Shown here piece by piece: positions 30 to 23,481 of a DNA stretch of 55,238 nucleotides. The notes below the pieces were generated by a model. It searched no databases. It saw only the letters and a program-made list of their open reading frames with translations, and had not been told where the DNA came from. Source of the stretch: Candidatus Margulisiibacteriota bacterium (GTDB lineage Bacteria; Margulisbacteria; Termititenacia; Termititenacales; Termititenacaceae); assembly GCA_031267055.1 (NCBI GenBank), contig JAIRZV010000033.1, forward strand, positions 1 through 55,238, read 5' to 3'. The translations under genes were made by a program, and so were the position numbers. Positions within the stretch are counted from its first letter, which is position 1, and every line of letters begins with the position of its first letter.

Positions 30-41
30 CATTAATATTGT

Positions 42-118: not shown

Positions 119-133
119 AGAATAAATCAATAT

Positions 134-759: not shown

Positions 760-765
760 GTGTGA

Positions 766-774: not shown

Positions 775-811
775 TAGCAAAAAAATTGTTTGACTGATGA
801 CTGATGTCAAT

Positions 812-1465: not shown

Positions 1466-1494
1466 GGCTGGCAGTCTAGCATATATTTGAGGCT

Positions 1495-2031: not shown

Positions 2032-2087
2032 AGATAAATTTTACAATTATGGAACGACCGACAGCGGCCTCAAGCCGCGGAGGAAGT

Positions 2088-2109
2088 GCCTGTCGCATTG
2101 GCGACAGGC
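2088..2109 (+). terminator. terminator-like hairpin downstream of coaE
   Basis: Perfect 9-bp stem GCCTGTCGC / GCGACAGGC with loop ATTG, followed by ATATATTT. Confidence 0.4.
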
Positions 2110-2156
2110 ATATATTTCCCGAAACTGGGTATAGGTTTGGACAAGAGAGGTGTTTT

Positions 2157-2930: not shown

Positions 2931-2942
2931 AAAAGGAGAATC

Positions 2943-4559: not shown

Positions 4560-4718
4560 CATTTTTTTGTGTTTTTAATAATATGAAATATAAACTGCCT
4601 ATGACTGTTAAGTAAGAATTAAGGGGAAAATCCATACAACAAAAAAAATCGATACATTTTTTGCATATTTGCCGTCGATAAGTGTCTGTATATAGAAACT
4701 ATGCGGGGGAAACTGTCC

Positions 4719-4799
4719 ATGCTAAATAAAATAAAAACGCTGTTCGGCGCATGTGTTTTTCTGCTGGGGATAACAGCGTTTCTGTCGGCCGCCGGTTCT
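4719..4799 (+). other. Sec-type signal peptide of the giant protein
   Basis: Basic n-region (KIK), hydrophobic core LFGACVFLLGITAFL, and an SAAG-type cleavage region. Confidence 0.7.
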
Positions 4800-7700
4800 T
4801 ATCTGGAGACGGAAAACAATCTCTACGATATTCCAATAATGACACAAGAAGGTAATCCTACTGTCGACACCAAATTGACGATCGGCAAGCATGTTTTTTC
4901 CGGAGCTATTAAGCAGGGCAGTAATAATCCTTTTTTAAACAATAGCGGTGGCAACCATAGGGTCTATACACCAGCCGCCTATAACGTGATGTCCACTGAT
5001 TCAAACAAGAATTACATTATACCTAGTGGCGAAAACTATATTCATGGTAGTGGCCAGGGCGAACAGCGTTATGAGATGAGGAGACCGAATTATTCTACTT
5101 CCGAAAAATTGCTGCCCGGTTTTCCCGCCATGGCGAAAAATATGGTTGCGAAAAAAGATGACAGCATCTTTGATGTTTACCCGGGCACGGCCAATATTAT
5201 CAATCACACAGACTTTAAAATTTCTTTCAAAATATACGCTACGCTTACAGTAACTGATAACGGTAATCTATCAGATTTTCAGCCGGGTAATACAAATAAA
5301 TATGCATTTACAACGCCGTATATGAACCTGGCGAGTTTGAACGTTATCATCCAGGAGACGCCTCCGGGTAATAGCACCACAAGCACTAATGTATGGACTT
5401 TTGACAAAATTATGAGTGGAAACATCATCCTAAGAAGAGAAAAAACAAGGGTTAGTCTGGGTGGTTATACGGCAGATGCTGAGGTGTGGACTACTACACC
5501 TTTTGTTATTCCGGGACTCCGTGACAATCTGGCTTACGGTTTTGATTTTTTTAGAGAAGGCGAAATGGAGTCCGGAACAACGGTGTACTTTGAAGTTCAA
5601 GTTCCCCGGGCAGGAGATCCTAACAATTACAGCCAGTATTCGCATACATATATAACAGCAGGAGTGCCTTTTTTAGATAATATCGTTTCCAAAAATACGG
5701 AAACCGGAATGAGCGACGACATTAGTAATGAAGTTTTGCACTCGCAGCTCTACGGCTGGACAGCGGACGGTGGCAAAGATATCAATGGCGACGGTTTTCC
5801 GGATCTGATCGTCGGCGACCCGTATTATAAATACACCAATGCGAGCAACGGCAGCAAGCAAACCGGCCGTGTCTATGTTTATTTCGGCGGGCCGGACAAG
5901 ATCCTGGACAGCATCAAAGATCTGCCGTCGCCGGATATTATTATAGAGGATAGGCCGACCATCGCCGTCGGATCGCGCGACCGCGAATTTGGCTACAAAG
6001 TAAAACTGGCGGATATCAATAATGACGGTTTTGCCGATATCCTAGTCGGCCAGCCTTCTTATGCCACAGACTCGCTAAGTATCAATCAGGGACGCATCCT
6101 GATCTATTACGGCGGCAAATGGTCCAGAGACGGCAAGCCGCATATGAATATTACCGACAAGAACATGATCGTTAGTCCGTCGATCATTATTAATTCGGAT
6201 AAAGACATTCTATCCACCGGCGATCCTTACAGGGATCCTCTTTTTGGCGCGGTTTTTGATGTGGGCGACATTAACGGTGACGGTTATGCCGATATTGTAG
6301 CCAAGATCGGCAACGACGTCGATTATAAGAACAATTTTATCTACGTGATCTCCGGCCAGGAGATTTCCAGCGGGACGAATGCTGATCTATCGCGTCTGAC
6401 TAAACATGTTGACCTTAAAAATAATCTACAAAGGTCCTCTATTTATGCCGTAGCCGAATCCGAGGTGGCCATAATCGGCGACATGAACAAAGACGGGATC
6501 AATGATTTTGCGGTTTCTTATCCGCGGCTGGACGAGGGCTATTCCCAGAGTTACAGCGATGTGCGTGTGTTTTATGGCCGTAAAGGAGTTTTGGATCATG
6601 GCGGTAGCTATGGCTATACAAATCCCAATATTTTGCTGATGGATAAAAGCGAGAACAATGATTATTTCGGCATTTCTCTGGCTGGCGGCGATATCAACCG
6701 CGATGGCTGTGCGGATTTGATCATTGGCAAATTGACGACAAGTGCTGATAAGAACACCGGCAAAGTTGTGGTGTTGCTCGGTCAGGAGGGCGTTAACAAG
6801 GCTAATTATACTTACAATGGAGACGATCCCAATCAGACTTCCGGCGGTGTTTTCGCGATCAGCGATCCTCTGCAGCCTGATCCCGCCGCCAAAGAAACCG
6901 CTTCGCAGTTTGGTTTAAAAGTGGCGGTCGCGGATGTCAATAATGACAGTTATGACGATATCTTGATCGGCGCGCCGTATTATGGCGGGTCCGAGATAGG
7001 CGCGGTGTATCTGGTACTGGGTACGGGCATCGAGGCGACCCAGAAAATCCAGGATAATCATTTTCATAAATTTGTGATCACCGGTCGCGAAGCCCACGCG
7101 CATTATGGTATGACCATCGCTAATCTGGGTGATTTCAATCAGAACGGCTACAACGATATTTTGATCGGCGCGCCGGGGTTTTATGGCGACAGTTTTTTCC
7201 GCGGCTATCCAATGGCTAGCGGCGACAAAAATTACATGACGGAGCACAACATCGATATTTTTTCCAATACCAAAGGCATAGACAACGCGCTGCCGGGGAT
7301 TTTATTGGTCTCAGCCAATCCTCAAGACCAGGAGATCGCCTGGAATGAGAGTATCAATACTATAAATCTCGTCTTGTTTGACCGCGGCAAGGCCGGTCTG
7401 GAATTCAGCAGTATCCAGGTGGAGTTGTATGACCCCGCCACAGATCGTATCGTGGCTACGCTCCTAAATAGCGCCATGGAACGCGGTATCCCCAACGGTC
7501 AGTCGGAGCGGGGCAGTGACTATGATCTGAAAAGTTTATGGCTGTCTTCCGGCAACTATAATGATATAGGTATAGGCCTCCCGAGACATTTCGACGATTT
7601 TTATAGCTATTATTCTGGTGGAAATGGTTATAACGAACGTATAGCTTCAGAGACTATAGGCTCACAGATACTCTATCGCTACAATCAAACGCCGCGTTTT

Positions 7701-10700
7701 ATCGGCCTGCAGTTTAAGCTGATACCAGGTAAAAATATATTTGCGGACAGCAAAGATTATCAATTGCGTGTCAAAGTCGCCGACCGCGGCGGTTTGACGG
7801 ATATCTCGCAATTTGACGAGTACCGGTTGAGCAAATTTGTTTTGAACATGTCGACGAATGAGCCTACGTTCGCTTCCGTGTCGCACAATTACAGATCTAG
7901 CGAGACTTCCGGTAATCCAGGTACTGATCCCATAGTTGAACCGGGCACACTTATCAAAGTGAGGGATATGAATTTTGACGGCCTGGATGATTTTGTGGTC
8001 GCTTATCCGAACTGGAGTGGCGTCAGTAATGATAGTAATACTAATACCGAATGGTACAACGGCAAAGTCACGCTCTTATATGGCTCCGCGGCGCCGGATT
8101 TTACCGGCTCAACTAACGCCACCTGGTTTTATGGCGCGAAGGATGGCGAAACTAATACAAGTCCATTTGACTTTGGTGCCAGTGTGGCTTCCGCGCGGCT
8201 GAATATGGGCCAGACAGAGCTGGTCAATGTTTTGCTGATCGGTTCTAACACCGGTTTTTATCCGGTCATAGCGGACCCTCTGCTGCCCAACACTACTAGA
8301 ACGAGCCAGGAGATGCTGGGTACATTTGTCGAATTCAATACGATGCAGGAGGGCGATGTCAACGCTCTCAATGCAAATAACCATCTGGGCAAGATGATAG
8401 TGCTAAACAGCGGCTCCGACGCGACCCCCGACCTGATCGCCGTGATGAATAAAACCGCCACACATTACCAGCTCATAGCGAATTCAGGAATAGGGTCGTA
8501 TACGAAAGGTAATTGGCTACCTATTGATGGTGGTGATATAGGCAAATCACTTGGAGGTGAGGCCGGCGCCACTGCCAACGCGGTCCAAATGATCGCCGCC
8601 AGGATCAACAACACAGACACTTACCCGTCGTTGGTCTTTGGTCTGCCCCATAAAGATAAAGTGATCATTCACCATATTTTGGACGAGGTTGATGTTAGTG
8701 AAAATAAAAAAAGTAGTGGGATCGTAATTAGCAGTTCGGCGGCGAGTATAAATTTTGGCGCTTCTTTGGCGGCCGGTTATTTTGACGTTAAATTAAATGT
8801 CAGCGGCAATCCCGTGGACAATAGCTCCGACCCTAATAAACCATCTGTGCAGAGTCTGGCGATCGGCGCGCCGAAGGCCAAGCGCAGCCAAGCTGACACA
8901 GGAGGCACCGGTTATGTTCTGGTTATCCATGGTGATAAACTCCAAACGATGGACATTACCGCCAAGGATGGTATGGAAAAGCTCGGAACACAAAATGTGA
9001 ATTATTATTTGCGTTACGGCGAACAATTAGGCAGCAATTTTGGCTCCAGCCTGGTCGCGCTCAAGTACATGGCCTCGCCGGAACATCTGGCCGGATATGA
9101 GGGTAGTCTGAACAGACCTTATCACGACGATTATGACGATCTGGCGGTCGGCGCTCCGGAGTACAAAATGGACGGCGAGACGAATGGTAAAGTGTATATT
9201 TACCGCGGGGGAGAAAAATTTCCGACAGTCGCCAGCACGGCCTATGCGAGAAAAGACAGGACGAATCTGGGCACAGCTCTGGCCAATGTGGGCGATGTGC
9301 AAAATGTCCGGGCGGAATTTTTGGCGATCTATTCTACTAATAATGGTGATCCTAAGTCGCTGGATTATTTGCGCACCAATACCATGCTGGATACCGAGCC
9401 GCCGGTCGTGATAAGCATGTTCCCGGAGAACAATCAATACGAAGTGACGCTGGACCAGAAGATCAGGTTTACGGTCGAGGATATTTCCGGCGTTAATTCG
9501 AATCAACTTAATATTACCCGCGTCATAGAAGGCCGAGATGTAGCGGTGGTCAGAAGCGGGGTCATAGTGGGTGGACAGCAGTCTATCAATGGCGGCAAAA
9601 ACTTCGATCTGCAGGTCTGGGATGTGACTGACCTCGACAACCCTAGCCTACTGGTAGGCAATGCCGCGCTGAACGTGATGCCGAAACGCGTCAGATATGT
9701 CGTGAGCCTGAATAATTGCAATTGGAATCCCTCGGAAGTAGTGGAACTCAAAATCACGGTTGGCGACGGACGCATGATCTTCACCACCAACGCCGACGGC
9801 ACAGTGCGGCAAAGACTGTCCCCGCTGGTCAGAGAGTTTAACTATGGTTTTATCGCTAAATATGACGCCAATGACGCAATTAAAACCAAAGAAATCTTTG
9901 GTAGCAGAGAGACCAACACTTATTTTGGCTCGTCCATAGCTTATGTGGGCGATGTCAATAAAGACGGGTATCCGGACTTTGTCGTGGGTGAGTACGGCAA
10001 CAATAGTTACGGCTGGATGTCCGGCAAAGCCTATCTTTTCCTCGGTGATAAAGATATTGACAATATGACCGAGCCGGCCGCGGAATTTACTCTGCAGGTG
10101 GGCAGTAACTCCAGTCGTTTTGACGCCAATTCCGCCAAATTTGGCTGGCGCGTGGCTCCGGCCGGCGACATCAATGGCGACGGCTACGACGATGTGGCGG
10201 TCATGGCGGTGAATTCTTCCACCTCGGGTGGCGAAGTGTTTGTGCTTTTTGGCAATCCTGATCCGCGTATAGTGGGCAAAGGCGGACTGAAAACAGAAAG
10301 AGACCGCATTTATCAGGTCGCACCGGCGCCAAAATCATTCCCGTGGGACAGCGACTATATCAGCTATCATGCCGTGTCGATCCGCGCCGCCGCCAATGCC
10401 AGCGGACCGGACGGACTGGGCTACGGCCTGTACGGCGGCGGTGATCTCAACGGCGATGGTTATGACGACCTACTGATCGGCGCGCCGTACCATGACGAAA
10501 AAGACATAAAAGCGGCCGGTCGGGTTTACGTGCTTTACGGCGGAAATGGCCTGCTCGATATTCACGCGCGCAAATCTTATAAATACAGCAGCGTGGCCTC
10601 TAGTTATGCCGGCCCATTGATGCTGGACAATGTCATCTACGACGCGACGCAGCCGAATAGCGGCGCGAATTCTTTTGTACCCCAAGCTTTTCCGGTCGGT

Positions 10701-13700
10701 TATATTCCTAATCCGGATCCCAAGTCTTATGATATGTTTGGCTGGAGTGTTTTGACCGGCATCAATCTCAACGGCGACAGTTTCGATCGCGTCAAGACTT
10801 TCAACGGTATCAGCGAGACCAGAAATATTCAGATCAGCGATCTATTGATCGGGGCTCCGGGCGTCGAGCAACAAAAAGGCAAAGTGTATATCTATACCGG
10901 CAAGCGGCCTGTGGCAGCCAATCAGGCGGTCTACGGCGTCGACCTGCAGAATAAAAGCGTATCAGGCGGAGAACCAGGCGAGAAATTTGGCTCCAGTCTG
11001 GCCAATCTGGGCGATATCTCGGCGGACGACAATAAAGGCTACGGTAGTAAAGCCAACAATCTGGTCGGGCAGGATTTTGTGGTCGGCGCGCCCGGCTACA
11101 AAAATATGTCCGGCGCGGCCTATCTTTTTGTCTCGCGACCGGAGCAGGGCAACGACATTAATATTAACAAAGAGCTGACGGTTTACGGCCAAAAACCCGG
11201 GGATCAATTTGGCTATACAGTGGCCAATGTTGGTAGTATCGACAATGATCCTATGGGCAACAATGATTTTGCGGTCGGCGCGCCGTATTATGATGAGATC
11301 AACAGATTTGACGAAGACGGCGAAGTGACCTCATCGGTCTCGCTGACTCCCAATGTGGGACGGGTGTATATTTTTGGCACCTCTCTGGAGAACACTGGCT
11401 CAGAGGAAAATCCGGATTATGTTTTGAAAACCTCGGTTTATCCGTCTCAAGTTGCCACCGGTAAACAAGCCAACGCGTTTTTCGGCGCCGCGATCTCCAG
11501 TCTGGGCGATATCGATCAGGATTTCAGCCCCGAATATTTGGTCGGCGCGCCGGGTTACGAGATAGTTGACACCACCAGCACGCTCAATACGCGCAGCAAT
11601 ATCGGCCGCGTTTATTTTTACACCAATCCGGACACGAAATCGCCGATCGTGTTTGGCCCCATGGAAAATGTCTATACTTTCCCGATACCGGGCGCCCCCA
11701 ACGTAGACTTGTTTACCAAGACTCCTGTTTTTGACAGCGCCGGCCATATGACGAACCGGCCCAAAATAAACTACAATGAGCCGCTGCGTTTCCGCGTTTT
11801 TGATGATCGCGCGGTCAAGCTGGATTCGGTGATGGTGGAGCTGAGACCGGAAGGCAAAAATCATGTCTCCCGCTATACTTTTGTGCCGTCGCAGACCGGC
11901 CGGAAATACTACACGTATGTCAACCGGAAAAATGTGGATTTCTTCTTAAATCTGGGCGCGGATTTTTATTACGAGACAACTTACAATCTGCGCATTTACG
12001 CCACAGACCAGAAAGGCAATGCTCTGGATTATAATTATGAGCCGTCAAGCAATGCAAATGCTCGTTATAACGGCTATATTTATGATCGCTTTGGCAGCGG
12101 CACAATAGGCGGCTTTAATGTACAGAGAGTGCCGTGGGCGATGGCCGATCTGGGTACGGGTGACCAGGATGCTGCCCGCACGATCTCTGAAAGAAGCCAA
12201 TATGTCCTGCCGTATTTTGAGTATTCTTTCATCACCGGAACAAATCCGACCGGCGAGCCGGAGCCGGATCAATTTGAGTTGTGGACGACATGGCGTCCGA
12301 CAGGTTCAGCGGGCAGCCAGGACACGAATGGTTTCTACGAGCCAACCGATAATATCCTGGACTATTTTGTTACACGCGCCAGTTTGTATTTGAAGCTGAA
12401 ATCCGCAAGTGACGGGGAAATATCCTCTTACAATATCTTGGCCATACCGGCTGGTGCTGTAACCAGTGCTGAAGAAGGAATTTCTTTCAATGTAATACGG
12501 TCTGTCGTGACCACCAATAAGATAAATTATGAAAGTGTTGGGTCTAATGATAAGCGTCGTTTAGTATTTGGTGAAAAAGGTACAGCCGGAATGGAAATCA
12601 CGGTCACTATGAATGAAGACGGCATTTTCACGCTCGGTGTCTGGGCCAGCGATGTCTCCGGCAATAGTATGCCTGAGCCCAGACTGCGCACTTTTGTCCA
12701 CGATGAATATCCGCCCAAGATCGTCACCGGACTGTTTTTTGAGACGCAGGTCAGCGGCAGTGTGACGACCGTGACCACAGTGAATTATCTGCCGGCCGCC
12801 GGCAGCACACACAATGCCGATGACTGCGCGATCAATTTCGCGATCGTGGATAAGGGCGCGGGTCTGGATGTTGTTTCCACCAACGGCGCGATCGATCTCG
12901 ATAAATTTCAGATCTATCTCAGCTTCGGCAGAGATACCACTACCAATTACAACCTCGACACCGTCATCACGGTCACGATCAACGTAGCTACTTTGAATAC
13001 CGCCGGAGAGACCGAGTATGTCGACATATCATCCACCATGAATTTCTGGAAACTGATCACGGAAAATCTGACCGTCAACGCCAGACATATGGATTATCCG
13101 GACGGCAGCAATAGCGCCAAGCCGACCACGCTATCGATAGGCATCTTGGAGCAAAAATTTACGTATCTGGACTGGGTGAATATCCTGGTCAAGGCCACCG
13201 ACAATGCCGGTCACGGGGACACCATAACTTACTCGTATCGGGTGTCGCCGGACTATCGTCCGCCGCAGGTCACTTATGGCCAGCCGCCGCTGATCAATGA
13301 AGGCGAGTATACCTGGGGTCAGCTGACTATCTCGCTCAACGCTTATGATGATGTGAATGTCGCTTATCTGGTTTTTACCGTGGCGGAAGATGATAACGCT
13401 GTGCCGTCCATCTGGAATACCGCGCTTTTGGCAGCGACAAATAATAATGGTTTTGTCCTGCCTATACCTAACCCGATAGTACAGTCCCGGTCTATAACAC
13501 TGCCGGTCACATGGAGCGTATTTGTCAGCAGCAGTATGCAGACGTCGACCGATGCAGTGACTAGTGAGATAATAACCTACAATTTAGTGGAGTATATCCG
13601 TGTCACCGAGTCGGCCAAAGATTATTCCGGCCTCGCGAGGCTGGAGTTGAGGCCGAGTGATACCGCGCGCGCCAATCCGCCGGATGGCCTGTACCATATC

Positions 13701-16700: not shown

Positions 16701-19700
16701 AAAATCGACACGTATGCCGAGCCACGTAGTCTGATCGCCGATGAGGACTCAGAAACGCCAAAAAAATATTTCGGTTATTTTGGCCTGGTCGTCGAGACCG
16801 GTGGTCGGAGAAAAGTGGCGGATCAAAGAGTGCACAGTACCCGGGATGGCGAAAATTGGAATACCTGGAAGTTGTTGACCACCAATGTGGTCGTATCGCG
16901 CGATGCCGTCGATAAAACAGTCACGATCAGTATCCGCCATTTGAATGCCTTAGAACATGAAATTCCCGATGTTGATAATGGCAGCACCAAGACCAAGACC
17001 GTATCCGCAAATATGCCGTATGTCATCAAGCTGGTGCCGGCCGCGCAGCTGCACGGTACCCTGCTGATCGACTCGCTGTATGTGCTGCCCGGCGTGAATG
17101 TGACGCCGCATCTCGTGGCTTCTGTCAGTCAAAACGCCAATGGCTACGATTTTGAGCTGAGCACCGAGCAGAAACTAAATGTGTACACTATTTTGGCCTA
17201 TGATCGGGTCGGCAATCTGGCGGTACAAAACCCGGAGCTGCTCCGCGACAACACCAAGCCTACCTGGAGCTATACCGACAGCCTGGAAGACTGGGTGGAC
17301 GAGCCGCTGAATCGAGTGATCACCAGTAATGAACGTGGCAGCGGAGTTGTTGAGGGTATACAGGCAGGAAAACGTTTTATTGCTTACTATCATATACCGC
17401 CGAGAAATGTCCCGGGCAAAGAAATAAATAGCTTATCAGTGCCAGAATACAGAAAAGCGCAGTTGCGGCGCAATGAGCTGGAAGATAAGGGTCTGCTTGT
17501 TTCGGCCAACGGTGAGGTGACGCGTAATTCTCTGCCGGGCGGTCGGCTTTACAGCAATGCTATGGAGGAATTCTATGACGCGGCTGGCAAAGAAATATAT
17601 GACGCCAATGGCAAACCGATGCTCGGCAGCGGCTACATCGCCGGTTTTTTCCAGGCGGTGGAAGACGATGGTATGCCGATACGCATGTACAACTATGAGA
17701 TCGTTGAGGCTACCTCGAGCACCAAGGATGTCACCGGGGAACATATCTGGGAATATAATCAGGTCCGGGATCAAGGTTATGGGTTGCCCAGCAACCGAGA
17801 TAAGGTTAATAGCCGCAGATATCCGACGGAGATCGATACTTCTGCCGCGGGGATCTCCTCAGCCGGCTCTTACAAGCTCAGGGTGCAGGCGGAAAATCTA
17901 TTTGGCGTGACATCTGATTGGGTGGAGACCGAGCCGATCTGGTATGATCTGGACGCGCCGACTATTTCGATCGAGATCGAGCCCAGCGTGGGTGAATATA
18001 TACAGGTAGCAACTGGCGACTATGCCTATGTAATGGCAGGGAATACTTATAATACCCAAGATGGGCCTACTAGAGCGATAGAGGATATGTATGTGCCGTC
18101 GGAGAACGGCGGGTATATTCTGCAGCCCTCCGGCTGGTACAGAGACTCGATCAATATCACGGTCAACGCTGTGGATATCCTGCGTTTTGGCAAGGGCGAG
18201 CTGGGCGCGGATGTCTATACTATCGGCGGTGTGGGCGTGGGGCAGATCCATGTGGTTACCAATAATCATGGTTATAATCCTGCCAACCATTCTTACGATT
18301 CCTATGTATTTCAAGGCGAGAATAATAACTTAGACGGCTACTGGGGAACTGCGAATAACACCACGCTGAACAAAGTGATCACTTTCAATCTGACCGCTGA
18401 GGGAGCCAATTCTTTCAAAGTGTGGGCTGTGGATAAGTTTGGCCGCTCCACCCCCTGGATAGAGAAAAATTTCGATTTGAATATCGACAGAAAGCCCCCG
18501 GTGCTCAAGGTGTATCAAGGTGGACAAACCCAAACCACTGAAATCTTGGACCCCGAGAAAAACACTTTATCTACATACTGGAGCAGCGCCAATGTAGGCA
18601 TTGGTTTTGCGGTCGACTATTCGGACGGCCTGGGCGTCGGCACCAAAGAGCTGCATTGGTGGGTCAACAATGAGAAGCAGACATCGATCGCGCTGAGTTC
18701 TATACCTGCGTACGGCGTGACCAGTTCGATCCCGTATTATCCGCGCGGCACAACAGAGTCGACGACGATGGTTCCGAGAGAAGGCGTAGTGGGCGGCTTT
18801 GTGCCTAAGGATTATAGCCCAAACAATGATGATAGGTTTCCTCCTCTGGTTTTGAATGATGCGGAGCGTAAACAGCTGAGAGATGCCGGCATATTGGATT
18901 CTGTAATGAGTGACCAGTATGACCATTATGAATGGCAGAAGGATAGTGTTTACACCGAGGCCGAATTGATCGCGAAATTAAATGAGATAGCGTTTGTCGA
19001 TAAACAAAAAATTATCGATGCCTGGAGATACTCTACTAAGCAAACGGGTAGCGGTGAGCGTGGACTGCATTATCACACTATAGACAGCGAAGCTTTTTCG
19101 CTGTTGGACGATGGTTATTTTATGGTGTCCGTGAATGTCGTGGATAAATTTGGCAATGTTTCCAACACGGGCAATTTCGGCTATGTGCTCAAAGACACAG
19201 GCAAGCCGGATATTCAGGTAAATCTGGGCGGTAGTTTCCAGAGCGAGTGGTATGTCGGTGGTGAACCCTACGATGACTATGCCAAAACCGGAGGCGGTCC
19301 GCTCGACGAGCTGACGGGAGACCATATGTATCACGAAGGTATTCTATTCAGGGCACAGGTCGGCGATATGTTCAATAACAATGTGCTGGTCACGCGGTCT
19401 TACTATCCGAACGAGAAGATTACGATACCGGATTATTATGACAATATTAAAGTGCGCACACCTGGTTCTGGCGTGAGAAAAGTGCAGGTTTGGATCAACA
19501 AAGAGGAGCCACTGTCTATAGAGATTGATGAGGGGAATATGAATCAGTGGCCGTCGCTTGCGTCGACCCGTTTTGGTTTCTCGATCAATAAATATTATGG
19601 AGAGAGCAATATAGCGGCTGATGATTTTGCATCGAAAAACTTTGTTATCAAGAACAACGGCATCAATATGATCAAGTACATGGTCGAGGATTTTGCCGGC

Positions 19701-22700
19701 AATGCGGTGTGGCCGTATGAGGATGATGTAACAAAGAGACAATGGAATGAGGTCCTGGGCTCATGGGTCTATCCGAGCGATAAAAACGTGATCCGCGGTA
19801 TCAAAGTGGATACACGACCGCCACGTGATGTAGAGCTAAAGATCATCACCAATAACAATAGAGAGGCTGAAGGCACCACGTGGACTTTCTATAATAGCGC
19901 TTACACCGACACGCGACCGGATGAGGATAACTATCCGTTGTACACCAAATGGCAGAATGTGCCGGTGCGTTTCTCCGGCAAAGACGACGGTATCGGCGTA
20001 TGGTATGCTTATTTCAGCGCTTCGGAGAACGCCCTGTCTGTGTCTTGTGATCAGGGTGTGACTAACTCTATGGATACCGACGATCAATATGTGAAGACGG
20101 ATTCCTGGGAGAATATTGCCAAGCTTAGCAAGGGTGGGAATGGGTTCAATGAAGACCCTGGTTTCAAATATGCGACGAAAGCCGTGGGCGGTGAACAGGG
20201 CATTTTGGACTACGCCAGTTACCGCATAGTCCAGATGGGCGAAATACAGGGCACGCGCAATCTTACGCTGCGTATGGCTGATTTTTTTGGTCAGAATTAT
20301 ACTGTGCCGCGCTCGTCTATAGAGGAAGTGTCGGCGACTTTCAATTACAGCGATCCGGATTTCGCGACCGCCAATTATCTTTCCGTGTCAGCGTTAAGTA
20401 AGGGGCTTTATGATGCGGTAAGCAATAACATGGGCGGTTATACTGTGAAGTTTGTCGAAAATGATGTCTCAGGAAACGAAATTCATCAATTTATCAGCGG
20501 CGGTTTTTATGATATGCCGACTAAAAATAGAGAAGTCAAAGATACGGTTAATAGTGGTAATATGGTAGATGGTTTGGACAAGTGGGGCGGATACACTATT
20601 AAGACCACGACTATCAGCGCCGGCGTAGTCGACGGCAAAGAGATCATAAATGAGCTGACAGTCTATCTGTGGGATATGGAAGTCGACGGTCGCGAGGATC
20701 ATCGTACGGCTACAGTCACGGCGGATAGACAGATCGTTCTTGACAATAAAATTTACCCTTCAGCCATAATGCCCGTGACGCTGCCGATCAAAGATCTGAA
20801 TTACGGGTCGGGCCAATGGCAGGAGCTGCAGAAAGATGAGGCGGTGGCAAACGGTCTGTGGACCAGCCAGGCCGAGCTGAAGGTGGAGTATGTGCATGAT
20901 GAGGGAGACGAATTAAGCGGTATCACGCATATCATGTTCGGCGGCGATATTGTGTCTGTGCGCTTCCTGGGCACGGGTAATGTCACGACGACTGAAAGCT
21001 ATAAGCCCGGCGAGTGGGTGCCGTATGTTTACAGAAGTGCGGGCCTGACCAATAATTATATCGTGACGCTGAGAGATCTGCTGATCGAGGGTACGCGCAA
21101 TGTTTCTATCATCGGTGTGCGCGACCGCGCTGACAATCAACTGGTCTCTAGAGATGTACATAACGTCACTGTGGACATGCATTCCGTGGAGTTCTACTAT
21201 GATGTCGGTATGCCCAGAGATGTGACAAACCGCTATCTCATCAAAAATCAGCACGGCACTGTTTTGAACAACAAATACTATGTCGGTGTGCCGACGTACA
21301 ATCTGGAGCTCGATTTCAACGGCGCGGCTTATTATGATATTTTGGAATACTCAAAAGAGACGAGCTATACGTCTGTGAGGTCTAACAATTATGCTGATAT
21401 TAGTGCGGATACCCCTGGATTGCCGCGGGTAGATGGCAAACCGGATTTCTGGGTGGCTATTAACGATATTGCCATGAAAGAAAACAAAGGCGACGGCGAG
21501 AAAACCCTGGTCATCAGATTGTTTGACCGCGGCACTAAGGATATGACCGAACAAAATATGCTGACGATCACTTACAATCACTGGGTGGATAACACTCCGC
21601 CGACGCTGAGCATTACCGGTCTGGAGGATAAAGACAGCAAATGGTATACGCCAAATAAGGATTTCAATCTGCACGTGGTGGACGACGGCGCGGGTATTGC
21701 TTCGGTCGTCTATCAGATCAGGAATGACGATACTAAAACTGTGGACACGGTGACCAGGAACTATGCTTTTGATAGCGGCGAGCGTTACCCGAAAGCCACC
21801 TCGCTCAACTATATCAAGATAGCGCGCAGTGGTAAAAACCAGATCGATCTGCGGGTCGAGGACGGTGTCGGTAATATCACGATTTATAATGTCGACGGCA
21901 TCAAGGTCAACACCAATCCGCCGGTCATTAGCGAGGTCAGCCCGCTGCAAGGCGCGTTGTCAGGCAACGTGATCTACACCAATCAAAAAGCGCTGCCGTT
22001 GCGAGTGTCCGGCACAGGCATCGATTATCTACAGTTCGAGGTGAACACCCCGGTTACCTACAACAAAACGGCGCAAGTGTCCCGGAATGCCAACAATGGT
22101 TACGCCGTGACTGTTACGGAACAGGGAGTTAGTGGCGACGGTATGTACACGCTGGATATTTTGGCTTACGACAAACTGTATGAGCGTTACGGCACAAGTG
22201 GCGCTTTTTATGCGACCGCGTCCTATACGGTGCTCCTTGATCGCCAGCCTCCGGCATTCTCGATAGAGACCGGGTCGACCGGACGGATTACGGTTGTGGA
22301 TGACTCCAAAGTGATCAGCGGCCGGATCAGCTTACAAGGTGTCAGCGACCTACAGTCGCCGGTGCAGGTGTTCTATATGATCAATAACACGGGCAGCCAG
22401 GCCTGGCCGGCACATATTTCCGGTGTTTCCAGCGATGTCTGGACGATTTACATCCGCGATGTGATCGAACAGTCCGGACGCAGCAACGGCAGCTACAGTC
22501 TGCGTATCTACGCTCAGGATCTGGCCGGCAATATGAGCGCCACGAGCGACGTCTCCAGTGATCCGTACAAGACAGCCGCTTTCAATGTACCGGACGGCTA
22601 TATCATGGCGCCGCGCGGTATGGTGATCCGCGGTCTGGATATCGGCGCCTCGGCCAATCTCAATGAGCAGCAGCAGGCTATGCAAATGGCCAGCAGCAAA

Positions 22701-23327
22701 CTGGGCGGCGTGAAATACGCTCCGGCATTAGACGCGACTGCGCTGCCGGTGGTGCAGGAAACTCCGACCGCCGAACCGACCGCCAATATTGTGCTCACGT
22801 ACAGCGAAGCGGCGGCCAAGCAAGTCGACGGCAAGACGGACTCTTTCCGCATCTTCTATCTCGATCCGGTCAAGAATGAATGGGTGATCGTGCCCGGTCA
22901 GGAAGCCAAAGAAACCAACGGTATCACCGCGCACGACAAAGAAAAACGTACGCTGTCTGCTCCGGTCATCGGCTTTGGCATGTACAAGATTTTTGACACG
23001 ACTACCTTTGCGGATAATTTGAAAGATGTGCATATGTTCCCGAATCCGTACAAAGGCAACGACGGCGATCTGTCCAACGGCGAAGACGGCTATGCCAACC
23101 GCGATCAGATCGTGCTCGAAAATATCACGAAGACCACGCGGGCGAAGATCTACACGATCTCCGGCGAATTGGTGACGACGCTGGAAGATCCGAACACGAG
23201 CACGCACAGCCTGAAGTGGGATTTGACCAATAGCCGCGGCGCCAAAGTGGCTTCGGGCATCTACATCATCTTGCTGACGGACGAAGAAGGCCATAGATTT
23301 ATCGGCAGATTGACCGTCGTGAGATAA
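4719..23327 (+). CDS. giant secreted surface protein (~6,202 aa): FG-GAP/integrin-alpha-like repeats, Ig-like module array, FlgD-Ig/T9SS-type C-terminal domain
   Basis: Single open frame 4701-23327. The ATG at 4719 is preferred because GGGGGA lies 8 nt upstream. Signal peptide MLNKIKTLFGACVFLLGITAFLSAAG. Many DxNxDGxxD...GAP...G+VY+ repeats. At least 13 module-boundary motifs of the D-x-x-x-P-P type. C-terminal FPNPY...SGIYI domain. Confidence 0.9.
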   Translation: MLNKIKTLFGACVFLLGITAFLSAAGSYLETENNLYDIPIMTQEGNPTVDTKLTIGKHVFSGAIKQGSNNPFLNNSGGNHRVYTPAAYNVMSTDSNKNYIIPSGENYIHGSGQGEQRYEMRRPNYSTSEKLLPGFPAMAKNMVAKKDDSIFDVYPGTANIINHTDFKISFKIYATLTVTDNGNLSDFQPGNTNKYAFTTPYMNLASLNVIIQETPPGNSTTSTNVWTFDKIMSGNIILRREKTRVSLGGYTADAEVWTTTPFVIPGLRDNLAYGFDFFREGEMESGTTVYFEVQVPRAGDPNNYSQYSHTYITAGVPFLDNIVSKNTETGMSDDISNEVLHSQLYGWTADGGKDINGDGFPDLIVGDPYYKYTNASNGSKQTGRVYVYFGGPDKILDSIKDLPSPDIIIEDRPTIAVGSRDREFGYKVKLADINNDGFADILVGQPSYATDSLSINQGRILIYYGGKWSRDGKPHMNITDKNMIVSPSIIINSDKDILSTGDPYRDPLFGAVFDVGDINGDGYADIVAKIGNDVDYKNNFIYVISGQEISSGTNADLSRLTKHVDLKNNLQRSSIYAVAESEVAIIGDMNKDGINDFAVSYPRLDEGYSQSYSDVRVFYGRKGVLDHGGSYGYTNPNILLMDKSENNDYFGISLAGGDINRDGCADLIIGKLTTSADKNTGKVVVLLGQEGVNKANYTYNGDDPNQTSGGVFAISDPLQPDPAAKETASQFGLKVAVADVNNDSYDDILIGAPYYGGSEIGAVYLVLGTGIEATQKIQDNHFHKFVITGREAHAHYGMTIANLGDFNQNGYNDILIGAPGFYGDSFFRGYPMASGDKNYMTEHNIDIFSNTKGIDNALPGILLVSANPQDQEIAWNESINTINLVLFDRGKAGLEFSSIQVELYDPATDRIVATLLNSAMERGIPNGQSERGSDYDLKSLWLSSGNYNDIGIGLPRHFDDFYSYYSGGNGYNERIASETIGSQILYRYNQTPRFIGLQFKLIPGKNIFADSKDYQLRVKVADRGGLTDISQFDEYRLSKFVLNMSTNEPTFASVSHNYRSSETSGNPGTDPIVEPGTLIKVRDMNFDGLDDFVVAYPNWSGVSNDSNTNTEWYNGKVTLLYGSAAPDFTGSTNATWFYGAKDGETNTSPFDFGASVASARLNMGQTELVNVLLIGSNTGFYPVIADPLLPNTTRTSQEMLGTFVEFNTMQEGDVNALNANNHLGKMIVLNSGSDATPDLIAVMNKTATHYQLIANSGIGSYTKGNWLPIDGGDIGKSLGGEAGATANAVQMIAARINNTDTYPSLVFGLPHKDKVIIHHILDEVDVSENKKSSGIVISSSAASINFGASLAAGYFDVKLNVSGNPVDNSSDPNKPSVQSLAIGAPKAKRSQADTGGTGYVLVIHGDKLQTMDITAKDGMEKLGTQNVNYYLRYGEQLGSNFGSSLVALKYMASPEHLAGYEGSLNRPYHDDYDDLAVGAPEYKMDGETNGKVYIYRGGEKFPTVASTAYARKDRTNLGTALANVGDVQNVRAEFLAIYSTNNGDPKSLDYLRTNTMLDTEPPVVISMFPENNQYEVTLDQKIRFTVEDISGVNSNQLNITRVIEGRDVAVVRSGVIVGGQQSINGGKNFDLQVWDVTDLDNPSLLVGNAALNVMPKRVRYVVSLNNCNWNPSEVVELKITVGDGRMIFTTNADGTVRQRLSPLVREFNYGFIAKYDANDAIKTKEIFGSRETNTYFGSSIAYVGDVNKDGYPDFVVGEYGNNSYGWMSGKAYLFLGDKDIDNMTEPAAEFTLQVGSNSSRFDANSAKFGWRVAPAGDINGDGYDDVAVMAVNSSTSGGEVFVLFGNPDPRIVGKGGLKTERDRIYQVAPAPKSFPWDSDYISYHAVSIRAAANASGPDGLGYGLYGGGDLNGDGYDDLLIGAPYHDEKDIKAAGRVYVLYGGNGLLDIHARKSYKYSSVASSYAGPLMLDNVIYDATQPNSGANSFVPQAFPVGYIPNPDPKSYDMFGWSVLTGINLNGDSFDRVKTFNGISETRNIQISDLLIGAPGVEQQKGKVYIYTGKRPVAANQAVYGVDLQNKSVSGGEPGEKFGSSLANLGDISADDNKGYGSKANNLVGQDFVVGAPGYKNMSGAAYLFVSRPEQGNDININKELTVYGQKPGDQFGYTVANVGSIDNDPMGNNDFAVGAPYYDEINRFDEDGEVTSSVSLTPNVGRVYIFGTSLENTGSEENPDYVLKTSVYPSQVATGKQANAFFGAAISSLGDIDQDFSPEYLVGAPGYEIVDTTSTLNTRSNIGRVYFYTNPDTKSPIVFGPMENVYTFPIPGAPNVDLFTKTPVFDSAGHMTNRPKINYNEPLRFRVFDDRAVKLDSVMVELRPEGKNHVSRYTFVPSQTGRKYYTYVNRKNVDFFLNLGADFYYETTYNLRIYATDQKGNALDYNYEPSSNANARYNGYIYDRFGSGTIGGFNVQRVPWAMADLGTGDQDAARTISERSQYVLPYFEYSFITGTNPTGEPEPDQFELWTTWRPTGSAGSQDTNGFYEPTDNILDYFVTRASLYLKLKSASDGEISSYNILAIPAGAVTSAEEGISFNVIRSVVTTNKINYESVGSNDKRRLVFGEKGTAGMEITVTMNEDGIFTLGVWASDVSGNSMPEPRLRTFVHDEYPPKIVTGLFFETQVSGSVTTVTTVNYLPAAGSTHNADDCAINFAIVDKGAGLDVVSTNGAIDLDKFQIYLSFGRDTTTNYNLDTVITVTINVATLNTAGETEYVDISSTMNFWKLITENLTVNARHMDYPDGSNSAKPTTLSIGILEQKFTYLDWVNILVKATDNAGHGDTITYSYRVSPDYRPPQVTYGQPPLINEGEYTWGQLTISLNAYDDVNVAYLVFTVAEDDNAVPSIWNTALLAATNNNGFVLPIPNPIVQSRSITLPVTWSVFVSSSMQTSTDAVTSEIITYNLVEYIRVTESAKDYSGLARLELRPSDTARANPPDGLYHILVAFEDEQHNRSDWTTCSIILDAESETGGPVMPIVRVNYHVDSPTPNNVDVTGLNIPHAQNMPLYFSKDTSVVDLYVYAKDTIVSPQPDAMPSGWLIGDDTADGRPLGVVVSVYSPNGNRDTSGNAITVWRPRGTDGKRASSDILLNYRTQIEARDVNYSGYMMRKIPAFDLSDYVTNNELGEVIDLYVNFADNDMFLPKTFLETGRIDPSDGNSDLWSDYLFTAADAKQTIINARYPTVSYYDDKYDLESSTGIFNYHPFNYLNGLVDAPIWDSKGVTSSVQRKDVISAANAFGRESTLSRNVTANFSEAPAHIRLYYDNTLPELTDLLALGGTAGGQEYSARSYSQNKGYLRFSAKYRDRISTNLMSMPLEVHKLYYQILAVTASGEDTMVWVDTKGDSYFKDRQKKVGSSADGYWRSGSYRSYDDSGLDAGQWIYLTSPTNNKLDRDPGNTTLSTALYKYLKDARNHNKNDLSYVENEENWVTINEGYNSWLTNPESSPNINYDIPSPKQRTNLTPEEEASLEAARYKAILTVKDADGQDITVSANKFATENLTARYMVSANLSLWSVLDISDDKLREGSAYNNWETLSPVEIPVSLDVGVMYFLRVAARDQAGNFSKIAISNPVYIDNTIPNEPSYNYMDGIVLNRNRFDIDFSDNYSGIYNLRLSKGDDTIEPIYLDNQAVTKELLREWRDITTTDRPDDVSSDRTFDYKQQVLNNWKVKPDIWDKLAEGEKTKFYFYLEDAVGLSYSTIGNKGPEFSFVRDTLAPTFDPSWDSSPNGVVSIVDETSKNIHYYTQDETLGLNVKPLEAHLIAVTDLASDWVVATSNTDPRDPRRIDPTLGYFEDEYHAYDDLRHIQDFSFEWEGDHEIRKPWYVQLSKAMERTYKSNIDFGNTQLTRPVEDTRSTINIAFLSARTAAKNDVDMFEDIAAIGSNGNYALAVHFDIDHHKDYLGDGSYDKWEEYTWGGVFATFNAGIDNDRRDATYNYTIGVMLNAEKIDTYAEPRSLIADEDSETPKKYFGYFGLVVETGGRRKVADQRVHSTRDGENWNTWKLLTTNVVVSRDAVDKTVTISIRHLNALEHEIPDVDNGSTKTKTVSANMPYVIKLVPAAQLHGTLLIDSLYVLPGVNVTPHLVASVSQNANGYDFELSTEQKLNVYTILAYDRVGNLAVQNPELLRDNTKPTWSYTDSLEDWVDEPLNRVITSNERGSGVVEGIQAGKRFIAYYHIPPRNVPGKEINSLSVPEYRKAQLRRNELEDKGLLVSANGEVTRNSLPGGRLYSNAMEEFYDAAGKEIYDANGKPMLGSGYIAGFFQAVEDDGMPIRMYNYEIVEATSSTKDVTGEHIWEYNQVRDQGYGLPSNRDKVNSRRYPTEIDTSAAGISSAGSYKLRVQAENLFGVTSDWVETEPIWYDLDAPTISIEIEPSVGEYIQVATGDYAYVMAGNTYNTQDGPTRAIEDMYVPSENGGYILQPSGWYRDSINITVNAVDILRFGKGELGADVYTIGGVGVGQIHVVTNNHGYNPANHSYDSYVFQGENNNLDGYWGTANNTTLNKVITFNLTAEGANSFKVWAVDKFGRSTPWIEKNFDLNIDRKPPVLKVYQGGQTQTTEILDPEKNTLSTYWSSANVGIGFAVDYSDGLGVGTKELHWWVNNEKQTSIALSSIPAYGVTSSIPYYPRGTTESTTMVPREGVVGGFVPKDYSPNNDDRFPPLVLNDAERKQLRDAGILDSVMSDQYDHYEWQKDSVYTEAELIAKLNEIAFVDKQKIIDAWRYSTKQTGSGERGLHYHTIDSEAFSLLDDGYFMVSVNVVDKFGNVSNTGNFGYVLKDTGKPDIQVNLGGSFQSEWYVGGEPYDDYAKTGGGPLDELTGDHMYHEGILFRAQVGDMFNNNVLVTRSYYPNEKITIPDYYDNIKVRTPGSGVRKVQVWINKEEPLSIEIDEGNMNQWPSLASTRFGFSINKYYGESNIAADDFASKNFVIKNNGINMIKYMVEDFAGNAVWPYEDDVTKRQWNEVLGSWVYPSDKNVIRGIKVDTRPPRDVELKIITNNNREAEGTTWTFYNSAYTDTRPDEDNYPLYTKWQNVPVRFSGKDDGIGVWYAYFSASENALSVSCDQGVTNSMDTDDQYVKTDSWENIAKLSKGGNGFNEDPGFKYATKAVGGEQGILDYASYRIVQMGEIQGTRNLTLRMADFFGQNYTVPRSSIEEVSATFNYSDPDFATANYLSVSALSKGLYDAVSNNMGGYTVKFVENDVSGNEIHQFISGGFYDMPTKNREVKDTVNSGNMVDGLDKWGGYTIKTTTISAGVVDGKEIINELTVYLWDMEVDGREDHRTATVTADRQIVLDNKIYPSAIMPVTLPIKDLNYGSGQWQELQKDEAVANGLWTSQAELKVEYVHDEGDELSGITHIMFGGDIVSVRFLGTGNVTTTESYKPGEWVPYVYRSAGLTNNYIVTLRDLLIEGTRNVSIIGVRDRADNQLVSRDVHNVTVDMHSVEFYYDVGMPRDVTNRYLIKNQHGTVLNNKYYVGVPTYNLELDFNGAAYYDILEYSKETSYTSVRSNNYADISADTPGLPRVDGKPDFWVAINDIAMKENKGDGEKTLVIRLFDRGTKDMTEQNMLTITYNHWVDNTPPTLSITGLEDKDSKWYTPNKDFNLHVVDDGAGIASVVYQIRNDDTKTVDTVTRNYAFDSGERYPKATSLNYIKIARSGKNQIDLRVEDGVGNITIYNVDGIKVNTNPPVISEVSPLQGALSGNVIYTNQKALPLRVSGTGIDYLQFEVNTPVTYNKTAQVSRNANNGYAVTVTEQGVSGDGMYTLDILAYDKLYERYGTSGAFYATASYTVLLDRQPPAFSIETGSTGRITVVDDSKVISGRISLQGVSDLQSPVQVFYMINNTGSQAWPAHISGVSSDVWTIYIRDVIEQSGRSNGSYSLRIYAQDLAGNMSATSDVSSDPYKTAAFNVPDGYIMAPRGMVIRGLDIGASANLNEQQQAMQMASSKLGGVKYAPALDATALPVVQETPTAEPTANIVLTYSEAAAKQVDGKTDSFRIFYLDPVKNEWVIVPGQEAKETNGITAHDKEKRTLSAPVIGFGMYKIFDTTTFADNLKDVHMFPNPYKGNDGDLSNGEDGYANRDQIVLENITKTTRAKIYTISGELVTTLEDPNTSTHSLKWDLTNSRGAKVASGIYIILLTDEEGHRFIGRLTVVR
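5740..7200 (+). other. FG-GAP repeat region 1 (about seven blades; approximate borders)
   Basis: DINGDGFPDLIVGDP, DINNDGFADILVGQP, DINGDGYADIV, DMNKDGINDFAVSYP, DINRDGCADLIIG, DVNNDSYDDILIGAPYY and DFNQNGYNDILIGAPGF, each followed by a G+xxVxxG strand. Confidence 0.75.
7960..9340 (+). other. FG-GAP repeat region 2 (degenerate; approximate borders)
   Basis: DMNFDGLDDFVVAYP...GKVTLLYG, SLAIGAPKA...GYVLVIHG, YDDLAVGAPEYKMDGETNGKVYIYRGG. Confidence 0.55.
9920..11630 (+). other. FG-GAP repeat region 3 (approximate borders)
   Basis: DVNKDGYPDFVVGE...GKAYLFLG, DINGDGYDDVAVMA...GEVFVLFG, DLNGDGYDDLLIGAPYH...GRVYVLYGG, LLIGAPGVEQQKGKVYIYTG, DFVVGAPGYKNMSGAAYLFV, DFAVGAPYYD...GRVYIFG, EYLVGAPGYE...GRVYFY. 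Confidence 0.75.
11640..22300 (+). other. array of Ig-like/beta-sandwich modules (approximate borders)
   Basis: Recurrent module-start motifs: DEYPPKIV, PDYRPPQVTY, DNTLPELT, DNTIPNEP, RDTLAPTFD, RDNTKPTWSY, LDAPTISIE, DRKPPVLKV, DTGKPDIQV, DTRPPRDVE, DNTPPTLSI, NTNPPVISE, DRQPPAFSIE. These are followed by motifs such as 'A.D.AGN.S' (e.g. AARDQAGNFS, AYDRVGNLA, AQDLAGNMS). Confidence 0.6.
23037..23324 (+). other. C-terminal FlgD-Ig / T9SS type-A-sorting-like beta-sandwich domain
   Basis: FPNPYKG...AKIYTISGELVTTLED...HSLKWDLTNSRGAKVASGIYIILLTDEEG...GRLTVVR matches the consensus shape of Por-secretion-tail/FlgD_ig domains (PNP..., iy...G.lv, W.g.n..G..v.sGiY). Confidence 0.65.
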
Positions 23328-23338: not shown

Positions 23339-23357
23339 TCACCTCGGTTCGTTTCGA

Positions 23358-23443
23358 CTAGCGCGGTAAATATTTTGCCCGGAGCGAACGTAACCTTCAG
23401 TGCTATGCCGTGTTCGCGAGGGCAAAGATATTTACCGCGCTAG
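23358..23443. repeat. ~85-nt palindromic intergenic element, copy 1
   Basis: Arms CTAGCGCGGTAAATATTTTGCCCGGAGCGAACG and CGTGTTCGCGAGGGCAAAGATATTTACCGCGCTAG are imperfect reverse complements around an 18-nt centre TAACCTTCAGTGCTATGC. Homologous to 30576-30658. Confidence 0.85.
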
Positions 23444-23481
23444 TAAAATCTAATATTGGCTCCCCTGCTAAGGGGAGCTGG

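Follow-up and report, generated by a model that had tools for sequence, protein, structure and literature searches.

A giant FG-GAP propeller protein with a conserved C-terminal sorting-type domain, encoded next to mreCD in a Termititenax-like Margulisbacterium

The contig JAIRZV010000033.1 of Candidatus Margulisiibacteriota bacterium (assembly GCA_031267055.1) is a stretch of 55,238 nucleotides, called here the window. A third of it is taken up by a single gene on the forward strand (4719..23327), the giant gene, which encodes a protein of 6,202 aa counted from the probable start codon at 4719, or of 6,208 aa counted from the first ATG at 4701 (the numbering used below). An original prediction, made from the letters of the window, had described a native secreted giant and named adhesin, S-layer-like and cell-contact proteins as candidate roles, none of them demonstrable from sequence. 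The analysis presented here supports this overall reading. The giant protein is a native, intact and acidic protein of the secreted type, of about 680 kDa, with FG-GAP propellers, a stalk that is partly immunoglobulin (Ig)-like and a conserved C-terminal domain (CTD) of the sorting type. By a modest measure, we favor the view that it is a cell-surface tether or adhesin, plausibly holding partner spirochetes.

The proteins encoded around the giant gene fall into 90%-identity clusters with those of Candidatus (Ca.) Termititenax aidoneus and of other Margulisbacteria metagenome-assembled genomes (MAGs) from termite guts. MreC, MreD, PBP2, RodA, and SHMT are 89–96% identical to their counterparts in T. 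aidoneus NkOx7-01. As judged from its proteins, the host is a Termititenax-like Margulisbacterium close to Ca. Termititenax aidoneus.

The reading frame of the giant gene (4701..23327, forward strand) runs through 6,208 codons without a stop, which agrees with the uninterrupted frame first reported. The start at 4719, also proposed at the outset, is preceded 8 nt upstream by a GGGGGA run resembling a Shine-Dalgarno sequence, lines up with the N-termini of the orthologs and is the start of the GenBank entry for the protein (MDR1323106.1, 6,202 aa, “FG-GAP-like repeat-containing protein”). The mature protein has a mass of ~682 kDa and a pI of 4.7. With a GC content of 0.50, a GC content at third codon positions (GC3) of 0.58 and a relative synonymous codon usage (RSCU) that correlates with that of housekeeping genes at r = 0.89, the gene has the composition of the host genome and is native, as had been noticed. 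A promoter-like site, TTGACA-17-TAATAT (4556..4584, forward strand; 10/12 matches), lies in the 141-bp gap 5′ of the gene. About 0.9 sites of this quality are expected by chance in the region, and the site is a weak lead.

Relatives of aa 3001–4200 were sought exhaustively with HMMER among 1.84 billion representative proteins. Merely 16 matches were obtained; in the best five, which are giants themselves, both the architecture and the ...GRLTVVR end recur. Orthologs have already been deposited, as has the giant gene itself. “Putative integrin alpha” is the label given to those of Ca. T. dinenymphae (GBR77531.1) and Ca. T. persephonae (GBR76844.1, partial); the metagenomic orthologs are a fragment from JGI and two proteins from ENA (5,812 aa) and Logan (5,449 aa). 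These orthologs have the same order of domains, from the signal peptide through the ...GRLTVVR C-terminus. The full-length proteins are colinear over ~5,000 aligned residues, with 33–43% identity; within the family as a whole, identity is 33–56% over 2,500–5,300 aligned residues, and the ...GRLTVVR CTD is common to the members. The protein of the window is the longest (6,208 aa vs. 5,449–5,812 aa). It is 50% (BLAST) or 56% (MAFFT) identical to that of T. aidoneus, with which it shares lineage-specific insertions, for example within aa 3320–4416. On the T. aidoneus contig, the open reading frame (ORF) fills all 10 kb examined 5′ of mreC. GBR77531.1 is annotated with 4,150 aa, the public annotation cutting off the N-terminal ~1,460 aa; on the contig (BGZP01000003.1, 5618–22453), which has no Ns there, 5,611 aa can be read in one open frame that starts with a signal peptide. 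A more distant colinear relative of at least 3,556 aa is found on metagenome contig ML7_10010890 (JGI 3300001336, 1–10672). It is 22–28% identical and carries the same CTD; a single in-frame stop splits off its last 223 aa. It does not adjoin mreC and lies in a different gene context. The family extends beyond the syntenic Termititenax set.

These comparisons bear on the possibility that the 18.6-kb ORF is an assembly artefact, either a chimera or a collapsed repeat, or else the remnant of a pseudogene. Such doubts may be raised by the source, a short-read MAG, and by related records that are fragmentary or mis-annotated, such as GBR77531.1 at 4,150 aa or the distant relative with its in-frame stop. 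However, no tandem DNA repeat was found within the giant ORF, where direct DNA repeats consist solely of the 30–55-nt motif encoding the FG-GAP Ca-loops, so that a collapsed repeat is not indicated. Native codon usage throughout a stop-free frame and the conserved synteny of the locus also speak against an artefact. Moreover, colinear giant ORFs are present in at least five independent assemblies, measuring 5,449–5,812 aa where complete, and in four of these they lie directly 5′ of mreC-mreD-mrdA-rodA, so that misassembly is very unlikely. Intact ORFs of 5,449–6,208 aa, colinear end to end, in four independent assemblies answer by comparison the concern about misjoins and frameshifts. The ORF is real and intact, and the idea of an artefact is effectively refuted, with hardly any probability left to it.

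The giant protein begins with a Sec-type signal peptide (4719..4793, forward strand; MLNKIK / TLFGACVFLLGITAFL / SAA, then G). This peptide, recognized by inspection as in the original prediction, is the only hydrophobic 19-aa window of the protein in a hydrophobicity scan and is kept in the full-length orthologs. It is followed by an indel-rich N-terminal domain (aa 32–345; 4794..5735). The first description of these ~310–340 aa as free of motifs holds. The domain has no Pfam or NCBIfam match, a profile of four ortholog sequences retrieves nothing from the PDB at E ≤ 5, and identity among orthologs is 24–35% with many gaps.

Three FG-GAP propellers come next, and the positions first given for the three clusters were correct. 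They were mapped with PF01839 and with a hidden Markov model (HMM) of the blade built from the protein's own repeats. Propeller 1 (aa 348–847; 5742..7241) has, by sequence mapping, seven blades with D-x-N-x-D-G-x-x-D Ca2+-loops and reaches 106.9 bits with PF01839. It is separated from propeller 2 by a first spacer (aa 848–1076; 7242..7928), bounded by the first propeller-2 blade at aa 1077; no family match was found for this spacer, which by inspection may be Ig-like. Propeller 2 (aa 1077–1506; 7929..9218) has degenerate blades. PF01839 matches four stretches in segment 2 of the search, and the blade HMM is clear at aa 1077 and 1475 and weak at aa 1371, giving two to three clear blades. The second spacer (aa 1507–1738; 9219..9914) contains a Big_5-like start at aa 1564 (DTEPPVV...), with a sub-threshold E-value of 0.031. 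Propeller 3 (aa 1739–2308; 9915..11624) again has seven blades by sequence mapping, and three of its canonical Ca-loops are kept in the orthologs. Overall, four overlapping segments reach 106.9, 90.8, 89.3, and 67.9 bits with PF01839, for a curated cutoff of 22.1, and blades of integrin alpha-V/alpha-IIb in the PDB match the repeats with E = 4e-13. Canonical D-x-[DN]-x-D-G-x-x-D loops are carried by eleven blades across the protein, and most Ca-loops are kept in three full-length orthologs at an overall identity of merely 33–43%. By these sequence criteria, the propellers are bona fide FG-GAP domains.

The propellers resemble integrin alpha in their FG-GAP blades, seven as mapped by sequence in propellers 1 and 3, with D-x-[DN]-x-D-G-x-x-D Ca2+-loops. 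In contrast with integrin alpha, the giant protein has three propellers per chain and lacks a thigh or calf leg, a transmembrane helix and a beta-subunit partner. In integrins, Ca-loops are found on some blades only, whereas all seven blades of propeller 1 carry them here.

Beyond the propellers lies a dark modular region (aa 2309–5634; 11625..21602) of ~12 modules of 136–593 aa, each ending in “Y.L.V.A.D.(A)GN” and then “D-x-x(-x)-P”. No Pfam or NCBIfam family matches aa ~2309–5634 above threshold; an OmpL47-type barrel domain gives a sub-threshold match, and Big_3_3, Big_3_2, and Big_13 are sub-threshold just downstream, at aa ~5610–5950. A phmmer search of the PDB with aa 2310–6208 gave no sequence match at E ≤ 1, ortholog profiles of three sub-segments gave no credible PDB match, and no internal repeats were detected in the region by BLAST. 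At least 13 D-x-x-x-P-P boundary motifs had been announced. This motif occurs literally once, and D-x-x-P-P seven times; it is a less strict end of the modules, “Y.L.V.A.D.(A)GN.S...” and then “D-x-x(-x)-P”, that recurs, ~14–16 times with spacings of 107–593 aa. When ortholog profiles are aligned with hhalign, the ~105 residues before each boundary are alike and in register, with probabilities of at most ~83% within the dark region, and the few distant matches to one dark module are Ig/Fn3-repeat proteins (Ig_J_second, Ig_Rha78A_N, Big_13, Big_3_3, fn3).

An AlphaFold2 (AF2) model of aa 3320–4416, made from six orthologous sequences, is beta-rich and unreliable, with a mean predicted local distance difference test (pLDDT) score of 46. 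Its fold matches (PrgB Ig-like, antigen I/II, SiiE, titin) were discounted, having TM-scores below 0.2, and a LamG/ConA-like jelly roll at aa 3780–4180 is a guess made by eye. The dark region plausibly consists of beta-sandwich modules with unknown inserts. The suggestion that other folds are inserted agrees with modules of 180–590 aa that have no fold recognisable by sequence. Thus, the ~10-kb Ig-like array first proposed stands in part. It is borne out by a confident model for aa 5635–5969, and the evidence for aa 2309–5629 is indirect. A motif scan of the whole protein found no HExxH, as already stated in the prediction, and no other catalytic, RTX (GGxGxD) or LPXTG motif.

The C-terminal 587 residues can be described with more assurance. 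The AF2 model of aa 5622–6208, based on 50 aligned sequences, has a mean pLDDT of 86.5 and a predicted TM-score (pTM) of 0.66. AF2 and Foldseek delineate three tandem Ig-like beta-sandwich domains (aa 5635–5736, 5742–5846, and 5852–5969; 21603..22607). The best Foldseek match of aa 5622–6208 in the PDB is to the BIg domains of SiiE (E = 3e-12, probability 1.00), with further matches to titin, the MpIBP ice adhesin, the extender of an Aeromonas RTX adhesin, and PorZ. From this model, aa 5635–5969 can confidently be assigned to three Ig-like domains. An alpha/beta domain follows (aa 5979–6101; 22635..23003), which has confident AF2 secondary structure, carries an “FRIFYLD..W..VPG” motif and is 83% identical to that of T. 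aidoneus.

The protein ends with a sorting-type domain from the superfamily of type IX secretion system (T9SS) CTDs and FlgD_ig (23031..23324), whose last residues are ...GRLTVVR. The original assignment of the last ~95 aa to a FlgD-Ig/T9SS-like domain is confirmed for a domain of ~100 aa, which matches the C-terminal region of the NCBIfam PorZ model (5e-13). A profile of six CTDs of the family aligns end to end with the Porphyromonas gingivalis PorZ CTD (5m11, residues 687–758) with E = 8.8e-5, reaching the last residue of both sequences; the same profile aligns weakly to the PorU CTD and to FlgD. In the AF2 model, the terminal beta domain spans aa 6111–6208, with strands over the last ~100 residues and a pLDDT of ~83–97 per 10-residue block. 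PorZ (5m11) is at rank 12 of the fold matches, the search having been made with the whole model. PF18962 (Por_Secre_tail) was not reported for the giant protein in the HMM search. Within the 50-sequence alignment of the C-terminal part, FlgD_ig is found in 44/50 sequences, Por_Secre_tail (PF18962) in 36/50, and CHU_C in 33/50. A search with the CTD profile gathered 603 proteins, of which the named ones are called “T9SS type A sorting domain” or “FlgD Ig-like” and come from MAGs of Elusimicrobia, Desantisbacteria, Omnitrophica, and Hydrogenedentota. Judging from these matches, the CTD is a member of the T9SS-CTD/FlgD-Ig superfamily, of a type common in uncultivated lineages outside Bacteroidota. 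Hundreds of proteins from these four lineages and from unclassified MAGs carry closely related CTDs, and in the metagenome collection 285 loci encode a relative of the giant protein's CTD. Elusimicrobia, Desantisbacteria, Omnitrophica, and Hydrogenedentota are not known for T9SS.

Conservation along the chain is uneven. The last 200 residues are 83–89% conserved, against 23–71% for the remainder, and the CTD is nearly invariant within the giant-protein family. The protein as a whole changes rapidly. Between the window and T. dinenymphae, it is 38–43% identical, whereas HAD, CoaE, MreC, MreD, PBP2, and RodA are 63–83% identical; between the window and T. aidoneus, the 50% (BLAST) of the giant protein compares with 89–96% for MreC, MreD, PBP2, RodA, and SHMT. 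Its rate of evolution is two to ten times that of its neighbours. A sorted surface protein exposed to diversifying pressure would be expected to show such a strongly constrained C-terminal signal on a body that changes fast.

The giant gene is flanked by conserved neighbours. Upstream are genes for two helical orphan proteins of 293 and 538 aa that have no signal peptide (2049..4559, forward strand); downstream, on the same strand, are mreC, an mreD-like gene, mrdA (PBP2), and rodA (23594..27846). Gene annotation gives the arrangement described in the prediction, with the giant gene between the two orphan genes and mreCD. The order HAD (reverse strand), coaE, 293-aa orphan, 538-aa orphan, giant gene, mreC, mreD-like gene, mrdA, rodA is shared by the window and T. 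dinenymphae. The part from the giant gene to rodA is also found in T. aidoneus, in Gx485_bin185 and on a metagenome contig (Ga0123356_10008401), so that the locus from the giant gene to rodA is conserved in these five. In every lineage seen except that of the distant relative, the giant gene is directly 5′ of mreC. Hence, its place by mreCD, at first thought unusual, reflects synteny conserved across the genus and is not an oddity of this contig. No mreB gene is found beside mreC, either in the window or in the related loci. Between the giant gene and mreC there are 11 bp in T. dinenymphae, 35 bp on the metagenome contig and 40 bp in T. aidoneus, and these gaps of 11–40 bp suggest co-transcription.

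In the window, a palindromic repeated element widens the gap to 266 bp. It is a long hairpin with 42-nt arms after the stop codon of the giant gene (23348..23453, forward strand), with a folding free energy of −55.6 kcal/mol as RNA and z = −5. A 55-nt core of this hairpin is repeated with 89% identity at 30601–30655, between the prephenate dehydratase gene and serS. Palindromic and intergenic, the element looks like a repetitive extragenic palindrome or a miniature inverted-repeat transposable element. On the other side of the giant gene, the 538-aa orphan (2943–4559) is 40% identical to its T. dinenymphae counterpart and diverges as fast as the giant protein, the 293-aa neighbour being 64% identical. 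The 538-aa orphan gene contains four copies of a 24-nt tandem repeat (2978–3097) coding for (S/G)AAGAKA(N/G). This orphan could be a functional partner of the giant protein.

Other features of the window may be mentioned here. On the reverse strand, 37482–45462 encodes the classic pair formed by PBP1c (transglycosylase, transpeptidase, BiPBP_C) and a bacterial alpha-2-macroglobulin of 1,914 aa. With a GC content of 0.44 and an RSCU r of 0.57–0.75, this pair is less host-like than the rest of the window and may have been acquired horizontally; it also indicates a diderm envelope. The stretch 31857–35722 holds a gene for a YhcG/DUF1016 PD-(D/E)XK nuclease, with a second copy (84% identity) of the final 80 nt of serS on its far side, and two orphan ORFs (339 and 289 aa) that share diverged repeats, with a GC content of 0.42–0.47. 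It looks like a small variable island. Equal ORF lengths (217, 293, and 538 aa) had suggested a duplication within the window. No DNA repeat accompanies them, and they were set aside as coincidence or spurious ORFs.

Several known families of giant surface proteins can be compared with the giant protein. It is like the type I secretion system (T1SS)/RTX adhesins, namely SiiE of Salmonella, MpIBP of Marinomonas, and the LapA-like proteins of Aeromonas and Pseudomonas, in being huge, acidic, Ca2+-associated, and endowed with a tandem Ig-like stalk, which here refers to aa 5635–5969 only. Unlike them, it has neither RTX GGxGxD repeats nor a C-terminal T1SS signal, it starts with a Sec signal peptide and ends with a T9SS-type CTD, its modules do not form arrays of near-identical tandem repeats, and no T1SS genes (ABC/MFP/TolC) are found in the window. 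These features place it outside that group. A Sec signal peptide combined with a beta-sandwich CTD of ~90 aa at the extreme C-terminus is the build of the T9SS cargo of Bacteroidota (the CTDs of PorZ and RgpB; SprB), and the giant protein has a Sec-type signal peptide and, at its extreme C-terminus, a CTD that is probably of this fold. The size class is also that of the gliding adhesin SprB, of ~6,500 aa. In contrast with such cargo, the host phylum is Margulisbacteria, the CTD scores under the TIGR04183 and PF13860 cutoffs, and its nearest relatives are not in Bacteroidota; unlike SprB, the protein has no SprB-repeat match in the Pfam search. Finally, the giants of Omnitrophota and the 36,805-aa and 25,000-aa proteins of the Chlorochromatium epibiont resemble it in their very large size, mostly unannotatable sequence and cell-attached lifestyle, and have been interpreted as mediating attachment (bioRxiv 10.1101/2023.11.21.568195). 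No homology between them and the giant protein was detected. They include regions of transmembrane, SecA-like, dockerin or haemagglutinin type and are encoded next to type II secretion system-like loci, whereas the protein of the window has propellers and a CTD and adjoins mreCD.

In termite guts, Termititenax cells are reportedly attached to Treponema spirochetes that are themselves ectosymbionts of oxymonad protists; Termititenax is said to be among the few bacteria that live attached specifically to other bacteria. In the mechanism that we propose, the giant protein would be exported by the Sec pathway through its N-terminal signal peptide, and the CTD would direct translocation across the outer membrane, retention at the surface, or both. 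The C-terminal two thirds would then form a long stalk made of the Ig-like domains of aa 5635–5969 and, presumably, of other Ig-like and beta-rich modules. This stalk would hold the three integrin-alpha-type propellers and the hypervariable N-terminal domain away from the cell, where they could bind a ligand on a foreign surface. Because of the Termititenax lifestyle, the Treponema spirochete that carries the cell would be the most attractive and likeliest target, and the fast turnover of the sequence may be an adaptation to the surface of the partner. The adhesin reading is supported by the best fold matches, which are to stalks of giant adhesins (SiiE, MpIBP, Aeromonas RTX adhesin). Giant proteins of cell-attached bacteria are also generally read as adhesion factors (bioRxiv 10.1101/2023.11.21.568195). 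We consider it probable that the giant protein is a binding or stalk protein displayed at the surface. That it is a tether to a spirochete is a more tentative proposal, possible and attractive yet short of probable.

Some points weigh against a tether or adhesin. The role is deduced from sequence and models, and the CTD is below curated cutoffs (18.7 vs. 23 bits for TIGR04183, 21.8 vs. 27 bits for FlgD_ig, PF13860). There is no T9SS gene (SprA/Sov, PorK/L/M/N, PorU/V) in the window, nor any secretion-system gene of another type; to our knowledge, no T9SS has been described in Margulisbacteria, and no literature linking this phylum with T9SS was found. About 3,300 residues (aa 2309–5634) have no assignable fold, the AF2 attempt there remaining at the low pLDDT given above, and an enzyme or lectin domain may be hidden among them. 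The distant relative possibly comes from a non-termite sample (labelled ML7), in which case the family would not be strictly tied to association with spirochetes. Lastly, the tight linkage to mreCD-mrdA-rodA fits a structural role in the envelope at least as well as it fits the binding of a partner. Such a role can be stated in full. The giant protein would be a structural protein of the envelope or surface coat, S-layer-like or sheath-like, whose production is coupled to lateral wall growth and which binds no partner. The position of the gene on the same strand directly 5′ of mreC-mreD-mrdA-rodA, with gaps of only 11, 35, and 40 bp in the related genomes that suggest co-transcription, speaks for it, and the S-layer protein SbsB is among the fold matches of aa 5622–6208 (ranks 29 and 32), to which the weak match to Big_5, a bacterial Ig-like family, may be added. 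However, in the window itself the 266-bp gap with its strong hairpin parts the giant gene from mreC, and the best fold matches are adhesin stalks. S-layer proteins are usually of 40–200 kDa, abundant and self-assembling; a protein of 680 kDa with three propellers of a ligand-binding type and a hypervariable tip looks more adhesin-like. We regard a coat protein as unlikely.

The remaining alternative concerns polysaccharides. Termititenax is reportedly predicted to ferment cellulose and cellobiose, and the giant protein could be a surface protein that binds or degrades lignocellulose or other polysaccharides, exported as T9SS-style cargo, with the propellers or the dark modules acting as lyase, glycosidase or carbohydrate-binding modules. 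Many proteins with T9SS CTDs in other phyla do degrade or bind glycans, a Bacteroides surface glycan-binding protein is among the fold matches (ranks 28, 44, and 48), and modules of 400–590 aa could hide jelly-roll or other folds, aa 3780–4180 having by eye an end like that of a ConA/LamG-type jelly roll. Nevertheless, no family of carbohydrate-active enzymes, carbohydrate-binding modules, lyases or peptidases is matched at E ≤ 0.1 anywhere in the protein (Pfam, NCBIfam), aa 2310–6208 have no sequence match in the PDB, and no catalytic motif is seen. Enzymes whose substrate does not vary would also not usually diverge as fast as is observed here. A role in polysaccharide use is thus improbable, to much the same degree as a coat, and a tether or adhesin remains the reading that we favor.

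The giant protein is a fresh example of the familiar giant, modular, adhesin-like surface proteins rather than a new kind of system. Two points are notable, namely a T9SS-type CTD in Margulisbacteria and a conserved place at the head of mreCD-mrdA-rodA. The strong conservation of this CTD in a phylum with no described T9SS bears on how far CTD-based surface sorting has spread, and the ~3,300 residues, whose detectable relatives are confined to a handful of proteins, form a reservoir of folds yet to be characterised. In the most far-reaching version, which we consider a long shot, the giant protein would be the tether behind a bacterium-on-bacterium life, displayed through a CTD-dependent outer-membrane pathway outside Bacteroidota and the Fibrobacteres-Chlorobi-Bacteroidetes group, with co-transcription with mreCD-mrdA-rodA coupling its display to lateral wall growth. 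If this were true, the CTDs of Elusimicrobia, Desantisbacteria, Omnitrophota, and Hydrogenedentota would mark an undescribed and widespread T9SS-like or alternative sorting system. As the largest gene of its locus, conserved in position, fast-evolving and adhesin-like in build, the giant gene is a concrete candidate for how Termititenax holds on.

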